From IMG/VR virus record IMGVR_UViG_2600254997_000018: a stretch of DNA of 12,534 nucleotides; one strand, written 5' to 3'. The notes beneath the pieces are model-generated. The model was not told the DNA's origin, searched no databases, and saw only the letters and a list, made by a program, of their open reading frames with translations. Source of the stretch: a virus (taxonomy: Duplodnaviria; Heunggongvirae; Uroviricota; Caudoviricetes). The translations under genes were made by a program, and so were the position numbers. Positions 2,733-12,534 of the stretch are shown here, in pieces (positions within the stretch are counted from its first letter, which is position 1; each line of letters begins with the position of its first letter).

Positions 2733-3209
2733 ATGCTTAGTGGTAAAGACTTAGGCCGAGCGATAGAGCAGGCCATTAACAAAAAAATTGCATCAGGAGC
2801 CGTCAAATCAAAGGCGGAAATCGCACGTCATTTCAAAGTCCAACCACCATCAATCCATGACTGGATTAAGAAAGGTTCGATAAGTAAAGACAAACTTCCA
2901 GAACTATGGCGTTTCTTTTCTGATGTGGTTGGTCCAGAGCATTGGGGGCTTAACGAATACCCCATACCAACCCCATCCACTTCAGATACAAAAAGTGAAC
3001 TTTTAGACATAAACAGCCTTTATCAAGCCGCCTCTGATGAAAAAAGAGCAATTGTGGCTTTCCTCTTATCTGGAAATGCTACGGAGCCTAGTTGGGTTGA
3101 TCATGACGTTCGCGCCTACATTGCCGCAATGGAAATGAAGGTAGCTAACTATCTGAAAAATCAAGAATCAAAACGGAAAAGCCAGAACATCACCAAGACA
3201 GGAACTTAA
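2733..3209 (+). CDS. racR: RacR-like prophage repressor (HTH, no recognisable S24 peptidase/LexA-type domain)
   Basis: 158-aa ORF (same length as Rac RacR) with HTH-like stretch SKAEIARHFKVQPPSIHDWIKKGSIS. Divergent from ydaS/ydaT-like genes as in Rac. Identity from synteny, length and recalled similarity, not a search. Confidence 0.65.
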   Translation: MLSGKDLGRAIEQAINKKIASGAVKSKAEIARHFKVQPPSIHDWIKKGSISKDKLPELWRFFSDVVGPEHWGLNEYPIPTPSTSDTKSELLDINSLYQAASDEKRAIVAFLLSGNATEPSWVDHDVRAYIAAMEMKVANYLKNQESKRKSQNITKTGT

Positions 3210-3283: not shown

Positions 3284-3346
3284 ATTAGGTCGCACCCAAA
3301 TCATTAGGCGCAGCCTATTGACAGGCAATTAGGCATTTCCTATAGT
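3284..3346 (+). promoter_or_regulatory. Sigma70-like promoter (TTGACA-17-TATAGT) with flanking and embedded TTAGGC operator-like sites; putative promoter of the DUF1391-dicF-dicB operon
   Basis: -35 TTGACA 3318-3323, 17-bp spacer, -10 TATAGT 3341-3346. Palindrome TAGGC-GCA-GCCTA at 3305-3317 abuts the -35, ATTAGGC at 3328-3334 sits in the spacer, and ATTAGG also occurs at 3284-3289. Confidence 0.5.
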
Positions 3347-3527
3347 TTTCCCATACCAACCCATCCCGTCCCACACAATACAGGGCAATACCTAGAGTTA
3401 CCCGGCAGTGGTCAGGGATTAAGTAGCCAGCCCGAGGCGTATGAACATGACGGCGGGAACACTTTGTATAACAGCGCAGCAGGTTTTTAGTTCCGCTACC
3501 CCAGCGTTAAGGGGAAATGAGGTCAGC

Positions 3528-3680
3528 ATGGATACTATCGAGCTTGGCAACAACGAATCTCTGGTATGTGGCGTGTTTCCCAATCAGGACGGCACGTTTA
3601 CCGCGATGACGTATACCAAAAGTAAAACGTTTAAAACCGAAGCTGCCGCGCATCGCTGGTTAGCCAGAAACGCTAACTGA
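3528..3680 (+). CDS. ydfA: DUF1391 small protein (YdfA/YdaF-like)
   Basis: 50-aa product MDTIELGNNESLVCGVFPNQDGTFTAMTYTKSKTFKTE closely matches recalled Qin YdfA. GAGG Shine-Dalgarno 7-8 nt upstream of ATG 3528. The track's 79-aa ORF from 3441 is an in-frame upstream extension. Confidence 0.7.
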   Translation: MDTIELGNNESLVCGVFPNQDGTFTAMTYTKSKTFKTEAAAHRWLARNAN

Positions 3681-3942
3681 TTAGCGCCAGTAAAAACAGG
3701 TTTCCACAGGTTAATTTACCCTGAAAAGTCAGGGCATAACACGAAAGCGCACGGCGAGATCCCTTTGCATATAAGTCTTGTCGTTAAATTTCTTCGACCG
3801 TGCGCTTCTGGTTGTGGCAATCCGCGAAATGGCGCGGCGGTAAGTATGGCGGGGTTATTCCTTCCCCCATTGAGGACACCGGGTTGTCAGGTTGACCATA
3901 CGCTTAAGTGACAACTTCGCTACAACGCCCTCTGCTATCAAT

Positions 3943-3995
3943 TTTCTGGTGACGTTTGGCGGTATCAGTTTTACTCCGTGGCTGCTCTGCCGCCC
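3943..3995 (+). ncRNA. dicF: DicF small RNA homolog (Hfq-dependent ftsZ-targeting sRNA of Qin-type prophages)
   Basis: TTTCTGGTGACGTTTGGCGGTATCAGTTTTACTCCGTGGCTGCTCTGCCGCCC differs at one position (A to G) from the 53-nt K-12 DicF as I recall it. A T5 run follows at 3996-4000. It lies upstream of the dicB-like gene, as in Qin. Confidence 0.85.
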
Positions 3996-4169
3996 TTTTT
4001 AAAGTGAATTTTGTGATGCGGTGAATGCGGCTATGCGCACGCGGAACAGTTAAAACCAAAAACAGTGTTATGGGTGGATTCTCTGTATCCGGCGTTAATT
4101 GTTAACTGGTTAACGTCACCTGGAGGCACCAGGCACTGCATCACAAAATTCATTGTTGAGGACGCGATA

Positions 4170-4358
4170 ATGGAAACGTTATTACCAAACGTTAATACGT
4201 CTGAAGGTTGTTTTGATATTGGTGTTCTGCTCAGTAACCGGGAGTTTACTGAAGATGCCATTAAGATGAGAAAATATGAACCTTATCTTCTCAATGATAA
4301 TTCCATACTTTCCAGAATTGCCCTTCTTGAACTTGGTATTATCGGAGAACAGCAGTGA
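4170..4358 (+). CDS. dicB: DicB-like cell-division inhibitor (MinC-activating small protein)
   Basis: 62-aa product METLLPNVNTSEGCFDIGV... matches K-12 DicB in length and N-terminus as recalled. GAGGA Shine-Dalgarno upstream of ATG 4170. The track ORF 4065-4358 is an upstream in-frame extension. Confidence 0.8.
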   Translation: METLLPNVNTSEGCFDIGVLLSNREFTEDAIKMRKYEPYLLNDNSILSRIALLELGIIGEQQ

Positions 4359-4543
4359 CTTCAGCGTTTGCACTGGTGATGACCGTTTTTCTTATAACGG
4401 GTGAGCCACAAAATGTGATTACCGGAATTTATGCCAGTAAAGAATCCAGCCTCCAGGCAAGAGACGAGCAAAAAATTTCTGGTGAATGCCTACCGGTAAA
4501 AAAAGTATCGCTGTACCTGAATAACGAAACACCGGCTGGATAA
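4355..4543 (+). CDS. Small membrane protein, YdfD-like (Qin lysis-protein position)
   Basis: 62-aa ORF with an N-terminal hydrophobic helix (SAFALVMTVFLITG). GTG start overlaps the dicB-like stop (GTGA) with GGAG Shine-Dalgarno 7 nt upstream; alternative ATG at 4379. Assignment by synteny (gene after dicB in Qin is ydfD). Confidence 0.55.
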   Translation: MTSAFALVMTVFLITGEPQNVITGIYASKESSLQARDEQKISGECLPVKKVSLYLNNETPAG

Positions 4544-4638
4544 CCCGCCAGCTATATTAACGCCATACCAACGGATTAAAAATGCCAGCAATGGCAGGGA
4601 TTCGTTCACCCTGAAATCTGTAATGAGGTTAAAACACA

Positions 4639-7110
4639 ATGAGTAAAATCTTTATTTGCGCTGCTATTCCTGACGAACAGGCCATAAAAGAAGATAGCGC
4701 TGTTGCGGTGGCCACTGCCATTGAAGCCGGTGATGAGCGTCGCGCACGCGCAAAATTTCACTGGCAATTTCTGGAGCAATTCCCGGCAGCTCAGGACTGC
4801 GCTTATAAATTTATTGTCTGCGAGGATAAACCCGGCATACCCCGCCCTGCCCTCGATTCCTGGGATACCGAATATATGCAGGAAAACCGCTGGGATGAGG
4901 AGTCAGCTTCCTTTGTACCGGTCGAACCAGAATCCGATCCGATGAACGTCAATTTTGACAAGCTGTCCCCTGAAGTACAGAACGCAGTCCTAGTTAAATT
5001 CGACACATGCGAAAACATCACCGTTGATATGGTGATTAGCGCACAGGAATTACTACAGGAAGACATGGCAACATTCGGCGGACATATCGTTGAAGCGTTG
5101 ATGAAAATGCCAGAAGTTAACGCCATGTATCCTGAACTTAAACTGCATGCCATCGGGTGGGTTAAGCATAAATGTGAGCCTGGCGCTAAATGGCCTGAAA
5201 TTCAGGCAGAGATGCGCATCTGGAAAAAACGTCGCGAAGGTGAACGCAAGGAAACCGGAAAATACACGTCTGTTGTTGATCTCACCCGCGCCAGAGTCAA
5301 CCAACAGAACACTGAAAACGCTGCTGAAAAAACCGGGGCTGTCACTGTTGCCATTCGCCGCGAATACAAACAGACATGGAAAACACTCGACAATGAACTG
5401 GCCTGCGCCCTCTGGCCCGGTGATGTGGATGCAGGAAACATTGACGGTACCATCCATCGCTGGGCGACAAATGAGGTTATCGACAAGGATCGCGAAGACT
5501 GGAAGCGTATCTCAGCATCAATGCGCAAACAGCCCGAAGCACTTGGCTATGACCGTCAGACTATTTTTGGCCTTGTTCGCGAACGTCCGATCGATATTCA
5601 CAAAGATCCCGTTGCACTGAACAAATATATCAGTGAATACCTGACGACAAAGGGCGTGTTTGAACATGAAGAAACAGACCAGAGCTCTACTGATGCTCTC
5701 CAGCCGTCAGCAGCACAAACTGCTCCAGTGGAGACGGCAGAATCCGATACTCAAAAAAATGAAATCCTGGTGGAAGCTGAACCATCTGTAGAGCGTGAAG
5801 GACCATTTTATTTCGTCTTTACCGATAAGGGCGGGGAAAAATACGGCAGGGCAAACAAACTTTCTGGTCTGGACAAGGCGCTGGCTGCCGGCGGTACCGA
5901 AATCTCAAAAGAAGAATATTTTGCCCGAAAAAATGGCACATACACGGGCTTACCGCAAAATGTGGATACCGCTGAAGATTCCGAACAATCAGAGCCGGTA
6001 AAAGTTACCGCTGACGAAGTAAACAAAATTATGCAGGCAGCCAATATCAGCCAGCCTGACGCCGATAAATTGCTTGCTGCATCACGTGGTGAATTTGTTG
6101 AAGGGATTAGCGACCCGAATGATCCGAAATGGGTGAAAGGGATCCAGAGTCGCGACGCTGAGGACCAGAATCAGCCCAACGTGAAACAAAATGAGCCAGA
6201 AGCGGAACAAAACAGCCCGGATACGCAACAAAACGGGCCAGAAGAACAACAACCAGAACCAGCAGTGCAACAGGAACTGGAAAAAGTTTGCACCGCATGC
6301 GGTCAGACCGGTGGCGGCAACTGTCCTGACTGTGGTGCGGTGATGGGGAACGCAACCTACCTGGAAACATTCGATGAAGAGAATCAGGCTGAAGCTCAGA
6401 AAAATGATCCGGAGGAAATGGAAGGCACTGAACATCTGCACAAGGAGAACACTGGCAGCGATCAGTATCACGCCAGCGATAATAAAACTGGCGAAACAGC
6501 AAATCCCTTAATTAAAGTGAACGGTCATCATGAAATCTCATCCACCAGCAGGTTGTGGCACCATCTGATGATTGACCTTGAAACAATGGGAAAAAATCCT
6601 GATGCGCCAATAAACGCTATAGCCGGTAAGTTTTTTGATCCGGCAACCGGAGAGATGGGGCCAGAATTCAGCAAAACTATCGATCTGGAAACCGCAGGTG
6701 GGGTCATCGATCGGGACACCATTAAGTGGTGGCTGAAACAGTCACGCGAAGCACAATCCTCCATTCTGACCGATGAAATCACGTTGGATGATGCACTGCT
6801 GCAATTCCGGGAATTTATCGACGAAAACTCCGGTGAATTTTTTGTTCAGGTCTGGGGTAACGGTGCAACTTTCGACAACGTGATTTTACGCCGTTCATAT
6901 GAACGGCAGGGGATCCCCTGCCCGTGGCGTTACACCAATGATCGCGATGTAAGAACGATGGTTGCTCTGGGACTGGTGATGGATTTCGACGCAAGAACGA
7001 CTATTCCATTCGAAGGTGAACGCCATAACGCCCTGCACGATGCGCGTTACCAGGCAAAATACGTTTCAGCCATCTGGCAAAAACTGCTCCCGAGTCAGGC
7101 TGATTTTTAA
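4639..7110 (+). CDS. Prophage exonuclease, 823 aa: RecE/exodeoxyribonuclease-VIII-like N-terminal region, CxxC-x7-CxxC zinc ribbon, C-terminal DnaQ-like (DEDDh) 3'-5' exonuclease domain
   Basis: Intact 2.47-kb ORF with GAGG Shine-Dalgarno. Motif DKLLAASRGEFVEGISDPNDPKWVKGIQ recalls RecE. C-terminal ~190 aa carry DEDDh motifs (MIDLETMG, WGNGATFDNVIL, HNALHDARYQ). Zinc ribbon encoded at 6289-6333, acidic/Gln-rich linker at ~6160-6280. Confidence 0.85.
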   Translation: MSKIFICAAIPDEQAIKEDSAVAVATAIEAGDERRARAKFHWQFLEQFPAAQDCAYKFIVCEDKPGIPRPALDSWDTEYMQENRWDEESASFVPVEPESDPMNVNFDKLSPEVQNAVLVKFDTCENITVDMVISAQELLQEDMATFGGHIVEALMKMPEVNAMYPELKLHAIGWVKHKCEPGAKWPEIQAEMRIWKKRREGERKETGKYTSVVDLTRARVNQQNTENAAEKTGAVTVAIRREYKQTWKTLDNELACALWPGDVDAGNIDGTIHRWATNEVIDKDREDWKRISASMRKQPEALGYDRQTIFGLVRERPIDIHKDPVALNKYISEYLTTKGVFEHEETDQSSTDALQPSAAQTAPVETAESDTQKNEILVEAEPSVEREGPFYFVFTDKGGEKYGRANKLSGLDKALAAGGTEISKEEYFARKNGTYTGLPQNVDTAEDSEQSEPVKVTADEVNKIMQAANISQPDADKLLAASRGEFVEGISDPNDPKWVKGIQSRDAEDQNQPNVKQNEPEAEQNSPDTQQNGPEEQQPEPAVQQELEKVCTACGQTGGGNCPDCGAVMGNATYLETFDEENQAEAQKNDPEEMEGTEHLHKENTGSDQYHASDNKTGETANPLIKVNGHHEISSTSRLWHHLMIDLETMGKNPDAPINAIAGKFFDPATGEMGPEFSKTIDLETAGGVIDRDTIKWWLKQSREAQSSILTDEITLDDALLQFREFIDENSGEFFVQVWGNGATFDNVILRRSYERQGIPCPWRYTNDRDVRTMVALGLVMDFDARTTIPFEGERHNALHDARYQAKYVSAIWQKLLPSQADF

Positions 7111-7168
7111 TGTTCAACCCGGATCGCCGCTAACGGCATATAGTTAGCGGCGGTTGTGAGATATAGCT

Positions 7169-7372
7169 ATGAGCAGCATATTTTTAACCGAAAATGAATT
7201 GCAAACGTTAACGGGCTGCAAATATGCAAGCCACCAGCGCAACTGGTTAATAAAAAATGGGCTTCCGTTCTATACCAATCGTAGTGGAAAACCGATCGTC
7301 AGTCGGGAACTGTTTACCTGTATAAAAACTTTACCACCACGTGAGGCTGAACCTGATTTCGGTGCGATCTAA
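7169..7372 (+). CDS. Excisionase-like protein (Xis, DUF4224-type)
   Basis: 67-aa ORF directly upstream of the integrase. Its stop TAA overlaps the integrase ATG (TAATG at 7370-7374), the classic xis-int arrangement. Confidence 0.6.
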   Translation: MSSIFLTENELQTLTGCKYASHQRNWLIKNGLPFYTNRSGKPIVSRELFTCIKTLPPREAEPDFGAI

Positions 7373-8397
7373 TGGGAAGACGAAGGAAAAATCCCGAACA
7401 CGAAAAATTACCGCCAAAGGTATACCCCAATAAATATAGTTATGTATGGAAACCGACATCCAGAGAATCTGTAACCTTAACTGCAATCGAGGATGGTTTA
7501 GCCGCATTATGGAAAAAGTATGAAGAAACGGTTAACCATCGCGATCGCGCAATGACATTTGGGCGTTTGTGGGAAAAATTTCTCGCCAGCGCCTATTACA
7601 GCGAGCTTAGTCCTAGAACTCAAAAAGATTATCTGCAACATCAAAAAAAGCTGCTGGCCGTATTCGGTAAGGTGCTGGCCGATTCTGTAAAACCAGAGCA
7701 CATCAGACGATACATGGACAAAAGAGGCGAGCAGAGTAAAACGCAGGCAAACCATGAAAAAAGCAGTATGTCGCGCGTTTATAGTTGGGGGTATGAGCGA
7801 GGATACGTGAAGGCTAACCCATGTGCAGGTGTAAGTAAATTCAAGGCCAAAAACCGCGAACGATATGTAACCGACAAAGAATACCAGGCAGTATTAAGCG
7901 TTGCACCTCTTCCTGTTTTTATCGCAATGGAAATTGCCTATCTGTGTGCAGCGAGGGTTTCCGATGTGTTATCGCTGAAATGGGAGCAGATTGGAAACGA
8001 CGGGATCTTTATCCAGCAAGGGAAAACAGGGAAAAAACAGATAAAAGCATGGAGTCCACGATTACAGGCGGCGATCGAAAAAGCAAAACAGTTACCAACA
8101 TCCGCCTATGTAATCAGCAATCAATACGGCAACCGATATATGTACAAAGGCTTTAACGAAATGTGGGTAGAAGCAAGAAATCACGCAGGCAAAATTTCAG
8201 GTATTTTAACCGACTTCACCTTTCATGATCTGAAGGCGAAAGGAATTTCAGACTATGAAGGAAGCAGCCGGGATAAGCAACTTTTCTCTGGTCACAAAAC
8301 CGAAGGGCAAGTGCTAATCTATGACAGGAAGGTTAAAGTTTCACCAACACTTGATGTCCCGTTACCTGAAAATATTCCAAGAAAATATTCCAAGTAA
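7372..8397 (+). CDS. Phage integrase, tyrosine site-specific recombinase
   Basis: 341-aa ORF whose C-terminal region carries residues consistent with the tyrosine-recombinase catalytic set (R in ARVSD, H/K in HDLKAKG, Y in LIYDRK). It ends 52 bp from the 3' end of tRNA-Ser. Confidence 0.9.
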   Translation: MGRRRKNPEHEKLPPKVYPNKYSYVWKPTSRESVTLTAIEDGLAALWKKYEETVNHRDRAMTFGRLWEKFLASAYYSELSPRTQKDYLQHQKKLLAVFGKVLADSVKPEHIRRYMDKRGEQSKTQANHEKSSMSRVYSWGYERGYVKANPCAGVSKFKAKNRERYVTDKEYQAVLSVAPLPVFIAMEIAYLCAARVSDVLSLKWEQIGNDGIFIQQGKTGKKQIKAWSPRLQAAIEKAKQLPTSAYVISNQYGNRYMYKGFNEMWVEARNHAGKISGILTDFTFHDLKAKGISDYEGSSRDKQLFSGHKTEGQVLIYDRKVKVSPTLDVPLPENIPRKYSK

Positions 8398-8449
8398 TTC
8401 CAAGTGTGATTTTTGTCACTGACTTAATGATGTGTAAGTGATTGAATTT

Positions 8450-8539
8450 TGGCGGAGAGAGGGGGATTTGAACCCCCGGTGGAGTTGCCCCCACTCCGGT
8501 TTTCGAGACCGGTCCGTTCAGCCGCTCCGGCATCTCTCC
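8450..8539 (-). tRNA. serU: tRNA-Ser (anticodon CGA)
   Basis: Reverse complement reads GGAGAGATGCCGGAGCGGCTGAACGGACCGGTCTCGAAAACCGGAG...TCTCTCCGCCA: 7-bp acceptor stem, anticodon loop CU-CGA-AA, long variable arm, encoded CCA. Matches E. coli serU as recalled. Confidence 0.9.
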
Positions 8540-9430: not shown

Positions 9431-9483
9431 TTAACAACTTTGCAGATTAATTAACCAATTGAAATGGCTTATGAAATTTAGTG

Positions 9484-9530: not shown

Positions 9531-9606
9531 TCCTCTGTAGTTCAGTCGGTAGAACGGCGGACTGTTAATCCGTATGTCACTGGTTCGAGTCCAGTCAGAG
9601 GAGCCA
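9531..9606 (+). tRNA. asnT: tRNA-Asn (anticodon GUU)
   Basis: TCCTCTGTAGTTCAGTCGGTAGAACGGCGGACTGTTAATCCGTATGTCACTGGTTCGAGTCCAGTCAGAGGAGCCA, 76 nt, matches E. coli tRNA-Asn as recalled. Copy assignment (asnT) is by position next to mtfA. Confidence 0.95.
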
Positions 9607-11209: not shown

Positions 11210-12419
11210 TCATAATTTCCCCAAAGCGTAACCATGTGTGAATAAATTTTGAGCTAGTAGGGTTGCAGCCACGAGTAAGTCTTCCCTTGTTATTGTGTAG
11301 CCAGAATGCCGCAAAACTTCCATGCCTAAGCGAACTGTTGAGAGTACGTTTCGATTTCTGACTGTGTTAGCCTGGAAGTGCTTAGTCCCAACCTTGTTTC
11401 TGAGCATGAACGCCCGCAAGCCAACATGTTAGTTGAAGCATCAGGGCGATTAGCAGCATGATATCAAAACGCTACTGAGCTGCCCGTTCGGCTATGGCGT
11501 AGGCCTAGCCCGTAGGCAGGACTTTTCAAGTCTCGGAAGGTTTCTTCAATCTGCATTCGCTTCGAATAGATATTAACAAGTTGTTTGGGTGTTCGAATTT
11601 CAACAGGTAAGTTAGTTGCTAGAACCATGGCTCCTTTGCCGACGCTGAGTAGATTTTAGGTGACGGGTGGTGACAATGAGTCCGTGTCGAGCGCTGATTT
11701 TTTCGGCCTTTAGAGCGAGATTTATACAATAGAATTTGGCATGAGATTGGATTGCTTTTAGTCAGCCTCTTATAGCCTAAAGTCTTTGAGTGACTAGATG
11801 ACATATCATGTAAGTTGCTGATAGGTTTCCAGTTTTCCGCTCCTAGGTCTGCATATTGTACTTTTCCTCTTACTCGACTTAACCAGTACCAACCCAGCTT
11901 CTCAACGGATTTATACCATGGCACTTTAAAGCCAGCATCACTGACAATGAGCGGTGTGGTGTTACTCGGTAGAATGCTCGCAAGGTCGGCTAGAAATTGG
12001 TCATGAGCTTTCTTTGAACATTGCTCTGAAAGCGGGAACGCTTTCTCATAAAGAGTAACAGAACGACCGTGTAGTGCGACTGAAGCTCGCAATACCATAA
12101 GTCGTTTTTGCTCACGAATATCAGACCAGTCAACAAGTACAATGGGCATCGTATTGCCCGAACAGATAAAGCTAGCATGCCAACGGTATACAGCGAGTCG
12201 CTCTTTGTGGAGGTGACGATTACCTAACAATCGGTCGATTCGTTTGATGTTATGTTTTGTTCTCGCTTTGGTTGGCAGGTTACGGCCAAGTTCGGTAAGA
12301 GTGAGAGTTTTACAGTCAAGTAATGCGTGGCAAGCCAACGTTAAGCTGTTGAGTCGTTTTAAGTGTAATTCGGGGCAGAATTGGTAAAGAGAGTCGTGTA
12401 AAATATCGAGTTCGCACAT
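11210..12419 (-). pseudogene. IS10 transposase, frame-disrupted (N-terminal 266 aa intact, middle and C-terminal parts in other frames)
   Basis: ORF 11619-12419 matches IS10 Tnp from MCELDILHDSLYQF... but stops at ...AKEPWF*. The expected continuation VLATNLPVEIRTPKQ... is in another frame, and the C-terminal ...HFQANTVRNRNVLSTV...GYALGKL is in ORF 11210-11419. At least three indels within ~200 bp. Confidence 0.8.
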
Positions 12420-12480
12420 CTTGTTGTCTGATTATTGATTTTTCGCGAAACCATTTGATCATATGACAAGATGTGTATCT
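12412..12480 (+). ncRNA. IS10 antisense RNA-OUT (predicted from position in IS10)
   Basis: Established IS10 layout puts pOUT about 115 bp from the outside end, transcribing outward. The window shows the expected stem: CGCACATCTTGTTGTC (12413-12428) pairs with GACAAGATGTG (12465-12475). GATC at 12467-12470. Confidence 0.5.
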
Positions 12481-12534
12481 ACCTTAACTTAATGATTTTT
12501 ATCAAAATCATTAGGGGATTCATCAGGCGTAGCG

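Follow-up and report, generated by a model that had tools for sequence, protein, structure and literature searches.

The window (the whole stretch of DNA that was analysed, 12,534 nucleotides in length) is 100% identical to a Rac-like prophage of E. coli 14EC007. With its racR immunity and its integration beside tRNA-Ser/mtfA the prophage is of the Rac-like type and is not Qin, and the region considered here is the early-left operon of this lambdoid prophage, which carries the following features.

2733–3209, + strand: racR (RefSeq annotation of the identical record)
3318–3346, + strand: promoter-like site TTGACA-17-TATAGT in the racR-ydfA spacer (11/12 positions of the sigma-70 consensus)
3529–3680, + strand: ydfA-like ORF (DUF1391), the final CDS ahead of the leader (RefSeq annotation of the identical record)
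3681–3715, + strand: mosaic junction segment, non-homologous to Qin (K-12 homology begins at query position 36, which is 3716)
3719–3734, + strand: small hairpin CCCUGA-AAAG-UCAGGG, at the conserved block's 5' margin (sequence and centroid fold)
3744–3807, + strand: hairpin of the original prediction, arms 3745–3757 / 3794–3807 with a variable interior
3808–3931, + strand: four-helix RNA domain of 124 nt (covariance model R1, 139 bits)
3811–3818/3919–3926, + strand: helix P0, the closing helix of the domain (consensus fold)
3822–3826/3833–3837, + strand: helix P1, a hairpin (consensus fold)
3839–3841/3878–3880 with apical stem 3851–3854/3864–3868, + strand: helix P2 (consensus fold)
3881–3889/3909–3917 and 3890–3892/3902–3904, + strand: helix P3 (consensus fold)
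3927–3943, + strand: U-rich single-stranded linker (placed by the K-12 dicF annotation and the Rfam match)
3944–3995, + strand: DicF sRNA (Rfam RF00039; 75 bits, gathering score 48)
3978–3993 plus U run, + strand: stem of the DicF intrinsic terminator (terminator scan)
4004–4153, + strand: long hairpin between dicF and dicB, closed by the 16-bp duplex GUGAAUUUUGUGAUGC / GCAUCACAAAAUUCAU at 4004–4019 / 4138–4153
4171–4358, + strand: dicB (RefSeq annotation of the identical record)

Going by its sequence, the strong promoter-like site at 3318–3346 is likely the early-left promoter (the equivalent of dicBp or PL) that transcribes the leader; a promoter scan found no promoter-like site inside 3681–3942, and a promoter internal to the leader was rejected on that ground. 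K-12 YdfA matches the window at 3528–3674 in tblastn with 85.7% identity; the ydfA-like frame is open from an in-frame upstream ATG (3441–3680, 79 aa), and the 50-aa product from 3529 is backed by RefSeq and by the K-12 homologue. After dicB follow, in order, a DUF1482 gene, a recE-like exonuclease gene, a DUF4224 gene, the integrase gene (annotated as frameshifted in the identical RefSeq record) and tRNA-Ser, and no N-type antiterminator gene is annotated in this early-left operon in the RefSeq record. The tRNA-Ser lies at 8453–8539 (- strand) beside the integrase, on the attachment-site side, and tRNA-Asn at 9531–9603 (+ strand) downstream of mtfA. At the end of the window a full-length match to IS10 RNA-OUT (98.8 bits, 12412–12481) is adjoined by a 266-aa ORF at 11619–12419 (- strand), which indicates an IS10-type element.

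Between ydfA and DicF, the stretch 3681–3942 holds no credible ORF, as the original prediction had stated: the ORF listing contains no ATG ORF of at least 20 aa in it, and the longest frames with alternative starts are TTG ORFs of 48 aa (3765–3911, + strand) and 34 aa (3716–3820, - strand). The prediction had also pointed out that ydfB and ydfC lie between ydfA and dicF in Qin, which is so in the K-12 annotation, and had suggested that the stretch might be a remnant of deleted genes. This last suggestion is refuted by an alignment with the Qin ydfABC-dicF region. In blastn of 3681–3943 the K-12 match is confined to the spacer downstream of ydfC, where 3716–3943 is collinear with K-12 1649154–1649382 at 88.7% identity over ~230 nt, including 1-nt indels; the K-12 segment is the last 229 nt of the 340-nt non-coding ydfC-dicF spacer of Qin, and the alignment runs on collinearly through DicF into dicB. 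Neither YdfB nor YdfC gave a tblastn match in the window at E <= 10, only YdfA did, and together with the spacer alignment this rules out decayed ydfB/ydfC coding sequence.

The ydfBC module is absent here, upstream of the mosaic junction at ~3681–3715. At the position of this junction other prophages carry ydfB/ydfC, Rha-type regulators or hypothetical-protein genes, and in thousands of E. coli prophage copies the megablast blocks break at it, with a common block starting from ~3714. Only 3681–3715 is therefore peculiar to this prophage, and the block 3' of the junction is conserved and non-coding. The ydfC-dicF spacer of Qin is directly homologous to it and has the same order of leader, DicF and dicB, whereas in the window the leader follows directly after ydfA, without ydfB/ydfC, and in Qin it follows ydfC. 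The C/G ratio of the leader is unremarkable (0.7–1.1), and avoidance of Rho through base composition was rejected because this ratio is ordinary. We are confident that 3681–3942 is an untranslated leader of the DicF precursor, made up of a 5' hairpin and the 124-nt four-helix domain; the stretch as such is already known as an untranslated region of that precursor.

Within the leader, the original prediction had singled out a long-range inverted repeat as a possible processing or stability element. The repeat is real (3745–3754 with 3798–3807, 10/10 complementary, 43 nt between the arms) and lengthens to 13 bp by CGA/TCG (3755–3757 / 3794–3796) across a bulged A3797. Among 5000 mononucleotide shuffles of 3681–3942, just 41 (0.8%) contained a perfect inverted repeat with at least 10 bp and a loop no longer than 60 nt, so the observed repeat is unlikely to be due to chance, and the MFE and centroid folds of the 228-nt context both keep the hairpin alongside the four-helix domain. 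Among 26 distinct homologues 97.6% of cells are paired over the 13 pairs, compared with 19–38% when the partners are slid. Compensatory changes are absent among the same 26 homologues, and the values are those expected from shuffles. Six pairs vary on one side only and in a wobble-compatible manner (a C-to-U change in K-12 is an example), some natural variants break pairs (A-C, C-A, C-U, U-U), and the interior of the hairpin is highly variable. The arms are thus conserved sequence that is able to pair, and covariation gives no sign of selection on the pairing. The hairpin is also missing from the cdtI, F1055 and phage P1 contexts, in which the four-helix domain and the terminator remain. What stood of the original prediction is the lack of a credible ORF and a real and conserved hairpin; the compensatory support that would mark a selected structure was found instead in the adjacent domain at 3808–3931, which that prediction had not noticed. 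The small hairpin at 3719–3734 is replaced in other copies of the alignment by an alternative hairpin, GCCUG...CAGGC.

The four-helix domain was defined from 120 viral contigs that contained a conserved 16-mer and yielded 75 distinct core sequences, and covariance model R1 was built on the consensus fold of P0 and helices P1–P3. The copy in the window scores 139 bits, that of phage cdtI 138 bits and that of phage P1 93 bits, and an R1 search of 912 kb (95 loci) returned exactly one copy per true locus. Over 58 distinct sequences 95.4% of cells are standard pairs, against 36–57% in controls with slid partners, and nine pairs show changes on both sides, where shuffles give 4.7 +/- 1.4 and none of 500 reaches nine; these pair counts come from an alignment fitted to model R1, and an independent MAFFT alignment agrees, with 95.4% paired and six pairs with double changes. 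The apical P2 stem occurs in at least seven different sequences, all of which fold and carry a pyrimidine-rich loop (CGGGG/CCCCG, CUGGG/CCCAG, CUGGGG/CUCCAG, CAGGUG/CACCUG, CAGGGG/CUCCUG, GGGU/ACCC and GGGGU/ACCCC among them). In helix P3 a U-A pair becomes C-G in copies of the phage P1 type, in P0 a C-G pair becomes U-A in copies of the cdtI type, and in phage P1-type copies the domain is closed by a helix of other sequence (AGCU/AGCU...).

Four pairs are mostly G-U on the + strand and would be A-C mismatches on the - strand, so that the RNA is co-oriented with DicF. The P2 lengths (24, 25, 26, 27, 28, 29 and 30 nt) change in steps that are not multiples of three, and together with the 1-nt indels relative to K-12 they indicate that the region is non-coding; a small coding ORF on either strand was ruled out by the indels, the P2 lengths and the + strand G-U pairs. 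For the domain sequence of the window on its own the MFE, the centroid and the consensus fold coincide at -42.4 kcal/mol, a stability that is not exceptional (z = -0.9). The family is narrow, comprising phages of Enterobacteriaceae that are mostly above 78% identity, so its conservation may partly reflect recent common descent. The 5' strand of P0 is lacking in two copies (L021, ~1632–1754, and L069, ~5221–5343), and likewise in a third (L134), which means that P0 is dispensable or that the copies in L021 and L069 are defective. The P0 losses in L021 and L069 resemble deletions between the repeated strings CAUAACGCGAAAgcgc and CCGCGAAAuggcgc. The third copy, at 4098–4290 of Actinobacillus phage vB_Apl-pPE4, has the domain within an E. 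coli-like Rac-type early region and shows a tandem duplication of the P0 3' strand, the linker and the terminator RNA of a DicF variant; its near-identity to E. coli sequence makes the assignment to an Actinobacillus host look odd.

Among the aligned copies the junction and loop sequences GGUAAGUAUGG and CAGGUUGACCAUNCGC show little or no variation, although the invariance of CAGGUUGACCAUNCGC is biased, this being the search pattern that gathered most of them. A second viral sequence scan, which largely returned loci already known, gave three CAGGCUGACC variants. The P2 loop is rich in UCCU/CUCC. The junction GGUAAGUAUGG at 3839–3849 varies in the family alignments only as GGUAAGCAUGG, GGCAAGUAUGG and GGUCAGUAUGG, and a -10-like NANNAT hexamer (3842–3847) is kept in every one of these variants, which with three variants is anecdotal; HK022 putL also has a -10-like NANNAT, for which a sigma-dependent pause that aids folding has been proposed (PMC9378689). 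The 3' internal loop of P2, UUGAGGACA (3870–3878), repeats the Shine-Dalgarno region of dicB, UUGAGGACG (4157–4165). This loop is not conserved in the phage P1, L109 and L098 types, so the repeat is probably due to chance.

Rfam 15 gave nothing but noise over 3681–3942 (E 2–8, searched at the gathering threshold and at E up to 10), and no match at E <= 0.1 at the domain copies of phages P1 and cdtI. Among the E. coli genome hits shown, none has a feature annotated over the domain; in several phage records a hypothetical protein is annotated across it. No description of the structure or function of the leader was found in the accessible literature. Nor did that literature describe the four-helix domain or its covariation, or report that it is independent of DicF, invariably coupled to a terminator and present in phage P1.

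Of 5426 complete E. coli genomes 4417 carry the domain, at 9462 places (median 2 and maximum 8 per genome), of which 506 are on plasmids, and it also occurs in P1-like plasmids of Escherichia, Salmonella, Klebsiella and Shigella. Of the leader, only the segment ~3811–3936 is common to such different phages as cdtI and Stx2c-converting phages, Salmonella phage F1055, P1, P7 and SJ46. Comparison of the window with phage P1 gives 78% identity over ~95 nt of the domain (E = 3e-14), with no similarity elsewhere in 5 kb. Its upstream neighbours are ydfC, Rha-type genes, ydfA or a promoter directly, and by this comparison the domain moves as a separate module. The DicF, cdtI and phage P1 types all have a hairpin of unrelated sequence directly 5' of the domain. 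In every annotated lambdoid context the domain belongs to the operon running leftward from the repressor gene and precedes dicB/kil, exonuclease, xis and int; none of the lambdoid contexts examined has an annotated N gene. There is one place per phage, with no second copy on the PR side (compare putR) in the 95 loci (912 kb). A scan of genome contigs with the DicF pattern gave six loci. On the - strand of phage cdtI (L010), Rfam matches to the C4 antisense RNA (68 bits, 40–127) and to isrK (60 bits, 152–228) lie on the far side of cro and are unrelated to the leader.

DicF is among the oldest known bacterial sRNAs. The match to its 52-position model RF00039 starts only after 3681–3942, and the leader is outside the model. 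RNase E generates the 5' end of DicF, and the 3' end arises either by termination or through RNase III, which gives a 72-nt DicF (PMC5069750, PMC9438474). In every type the linker between P0 and the following sRNA is single-stranded and U-rich, and its end in the window, AAU|UUU at the 5' end of DicF, would be the expected region of RNase E cleavage. Farther 3', the end of the 72-nt DicF (~4015) falls inside the hairpin at 4004–4153, which makes it likely that RNase III has its site there and not in the upstream leader; the 4004–4019/4138–4153 duplex is probably that site. A sub-threshold Rfam match to STnc100 covers 4007–4147 of this spacer (35 bits against a gathering score of 47).

A hairpin with a U run is found ~30–90 nt 3' of the domain in all 118 copies examined; an automatic rule placed the terminator within 32–69 nt in 117 of the 118, and the last was recognised by eye at ~+85. 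The terminator-bearing RNA that follows varies widely, being DicF or one of at least seven other bodies; its cdtI/Stx2c and phage P1 versions have no Rfam DicF match. The domain is better conserved than the sRNAs 3' of it, which argues for a generic role at the terminator or in the release of the sRNA and against a role tied to the target of the sRNA. In the window, the terminator scan found one + strand intrinsic-terminator-like site in 3900–8500, the DicF terminator, with no other ahead of the integrase; dicB is the first gene whose transcription requires the DicF terminator to be read through.

The arrangement in phage P1 is the most informative one. There the domain starts ~35 nt past the C1-controlled P1ban/P2ban promoters and is followed after 13 nt by a strong + strand terminator with an 8-bp G+C-rich stem and six U, so that the order is promoter, 35 nt, domain, 13 nt, terminator, and then tRNAs, tciABC and ban. 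No further + strand intrinsic terminator was detected in the ban leader. As this terminator lies upstream of every gene of the operon, expression of ban from the C1-controlled promoters needs read-through. The P1 annotators evidently noticed a similarity to the dicF region of Qin, and their "dicF-like region" (misc_feature 68791–68892, NC_005856) overlaps the 3' half of the P1 domain and the terminator; its likeness to Qin resides in the domain (helices P1–P3) and not in DicF.

The nearest functional parallel is found in the put RNAs. Those of HK022 and HK639 are cis antiterminators that bind RNA polymerase and suppress termination without protein factors, and their action is blocked by mutations in the zinc-binding domain of the beta' subunit. 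To our knowledge they are the one proven class of RNA antiterminators. Like the domain, they are folded RNAs in the early-operon leader of lambdoid phages without N, upstream of terminators, and the HK639 putL-like feature is annotated at 126 nt, a size similar to that of the domain. In HK022 the folded put leader RNA governs the passage of early-operon terminators (PMC9378689). HK022 putL and putR were located in the genome, with the numbering checked against the same source (PMC9378689), and the HK639 putL-like feature was taken from the annotation. Model R1 has no match at HK022 putL/putR even at E up to 10 with filters off, nor at the HK639 putL-like feature (34187–34312), and blastn at word size 7 gives no alignment between the domain and the put RNAs, for which reason membership of the put family was rejected. 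The shared strings, a 9-mer, GCGCGGCGG (roughly 0.03), and a GUYCAGGWUGAMC-like string in the apical part, are both within chance. The domain also differs in having four helices where put has two stem-loops, and in occurring once per phage, immediately before a terminator that itself is an sRNA.

Lambda nut/N occupies the same early-left leader position. In the cdtI and F1055 types a boxA-like string, GUGCUCUCUUCG / GUGCUCUCAGCG, is found ahead of the domain; the DicF type has a degenerate form of it (GUGCGCUUC) and phage P1 has none. Unlike lambda nut, the domain has no boxB-type 15-nt hairpin, and, as in every context examined, no N gene is annotated. In its layout of a conserved multi-helix domain with variable peripheral stems and then a terminator before the genes, which is clearest in phage P1, it resembles riboswitches and attenuators, but it matches no Rfam family, nothing indicates a ligand, and no conserved alternative pairing of the terminator was found. 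Inspection by eye revealed no antiterminator pairing with the terminator 5' strand that is conserved across the DicF, cdtI and P1 types: CUGYUAUC/GGUAUCAG could pair in the DicF type and has no counterpart in the cdtI/P1 types. Competition from a repeated GGCGGUA string was rejected, as the string is not conserved in P1 or F1055.

From its position and conservation we infer that the domain is a cis-acting structured leader of a phage early operon. Our preferred reading, which we hold tentatively and by analogy, is that it controls read-through of the terminator that follows, being put-like in logic. Transcription from the promoter at ~3318–3346 would run through ydfA, the leader, DicF and its terminator, dicB, the exonuclease gene and the integrase gene. 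The domain would fold co-transcriptionally just ahead of the first intrinsic terminator of the operon and would act in cis, either on RNA polymerase during elongation or on the terminator as it emerges. It would set the fraction of transcripts that stop at the terminator and give the 53-nt DicF after the RNase E cut; the remaining transcripts would read through into dicB and the recombination and integration genes. In this way the domain would determine how much RNA ends as terminated DicF precursor and how much becomes full-length dicB mRNA. The reading is suggested by the placement of a folded leader before the first terminator in phages that lack N, which matches the put logic of HK022, and it is favoured by the P1 arrangement, in which ban expression needs read-through, and because every copy examined is tied to a terminator, whereas the sRNA bodies differ widely. 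It is weakened by the absence of an R1 match to putL, putR and HK639, which leaves no detectable kinship with put, and by the single intrinsic terminator downstream, for which processive antitermination is not clearly needed. The lack of a conserved antiterminator pairing, the copies without the P0 5' strand, the narrowness of the family and the ordinary stability of the fold also count against it. More doubtfully, the domain may represent an unrecognised class of cis RNA, either a put-like antiterminator of separate origin that modifies E. coli RNA polymerase or a riboswitch-like attenuator, which would govern read-through of the first early-operon terminator in lambdoid phages without N and of that in the ban operon of phage P1.

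The main rival, which we consider rather unlikely, is that the domain is a scaffold for sRNA maturation, a portable cassette that presents the U-rich linker to RNase E and leaves RNA polymerase unaffected. The 5' hairpin would insulate the domain, the sRNA would be freed with a defined 5' end from any upstream mRNA, and the domain may also protect the precursor. Recombination of the module into many upstream contexts, a single-stranded U-rich linker in every type, a terminator-type sRNA always 3' of the domain and an unrelated-sequence hairpin just 5' of it in the DicF, cdtI and P1 types all fit such a cassette, as does the making of the DicF 5' end from the operon transcript by RNase E (PMC5069750, PMC9438474). 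The domain is, however, better conserved than the sRNAs that it would serve, and in phage P1 the transcript begins only ~35 nt upstream, which leaves little to remove. The processing of 3'UTR-derived sRNAs is not known to need more than local stem-loops and an A/U-rich site, and a 124-nt four-helix domain with invariant junctions and loops exceeds these needs.

Less probable still, at odds that we regard as poor, is a domain of ~120–150 nt with a role of its own that would be stable after the RNase E cut at the DicF 5' end and would act in trans as a decoy or sponge by binding a protein or RNA of the host. A closed fold of several helices that ends in a terminal helix would be expected to resist 3' exonucleases, GGUAAGUAUGG and CAGGUUGACCAUNCGC are near-invariant, the P2 loop is UCCU/CUCC-rich, and a genome may hold up to eight copies. 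Many enterobacterial prophage sRNAs are contained in Rfam 15, but the domain has no match there, we found no mention of such an RNA in the accessible literature, and the strict coupling to a downstream terminator would be left unexplained.

We think it very unlikely that the domain is a conditional attenuator that would respond to temperature, a ligand or a protein by using alternative pairings to turn the terminator on or off. A folded domain followed by an intrinsic terminator is the architecture of a riboswitch, the dicBF operon has no known inducing signal (PMC5069750), and RNAalifold proposes a helix of CAUAAC(A)CG (3735–3743) with CUGGUUGUG (3809–3817) that competes for the 5' strand of P0. 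This helix is confined to the DicF-type leader and missing in the cdtI and P1 types, however, no conserved antiterminator pairing was found, and the MFE and centroid folds retain both the hairpin and P0. Least probable of all is the original view that the 3745/3798 hairpin is itself a functional processing or stability element, or that the stretch is decayed ydfB/ydfC: although real, conserved and improbable by chance, the hairpin shows zero compensatory changes, has pairs broken in some natural variants and is absent from the cdtI, F1055 and P1 contexts that keep domain and terminator, the block is homologous to the Qin spacer with no YdfB/YdfC similarity, and the RNase III duplex that fits the 72-nt DicF end is downstream, at 4004–4019/4138–4153.

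We know of no published explanation for the passage of transcription beyond the DicF terminator into dicB. An RNA domain that is backed by covariation and absent from Rfam 15 sits at this terminator and offers a concrete object to test. Were the domain to control termination, phages without N would possess a second, independent family of RNA antiterminators or attenuators, which would explain the expression of early-left genes in these phages, the Stx2c-converting phages included. Control in cis would further make the domain the control point for the ratio of DicF to DicB in ~80% of E. coli genomes. A maturation cassette, in contrast, would offer a portable tool of natural origin for the release of sRNAs from mRNAs.
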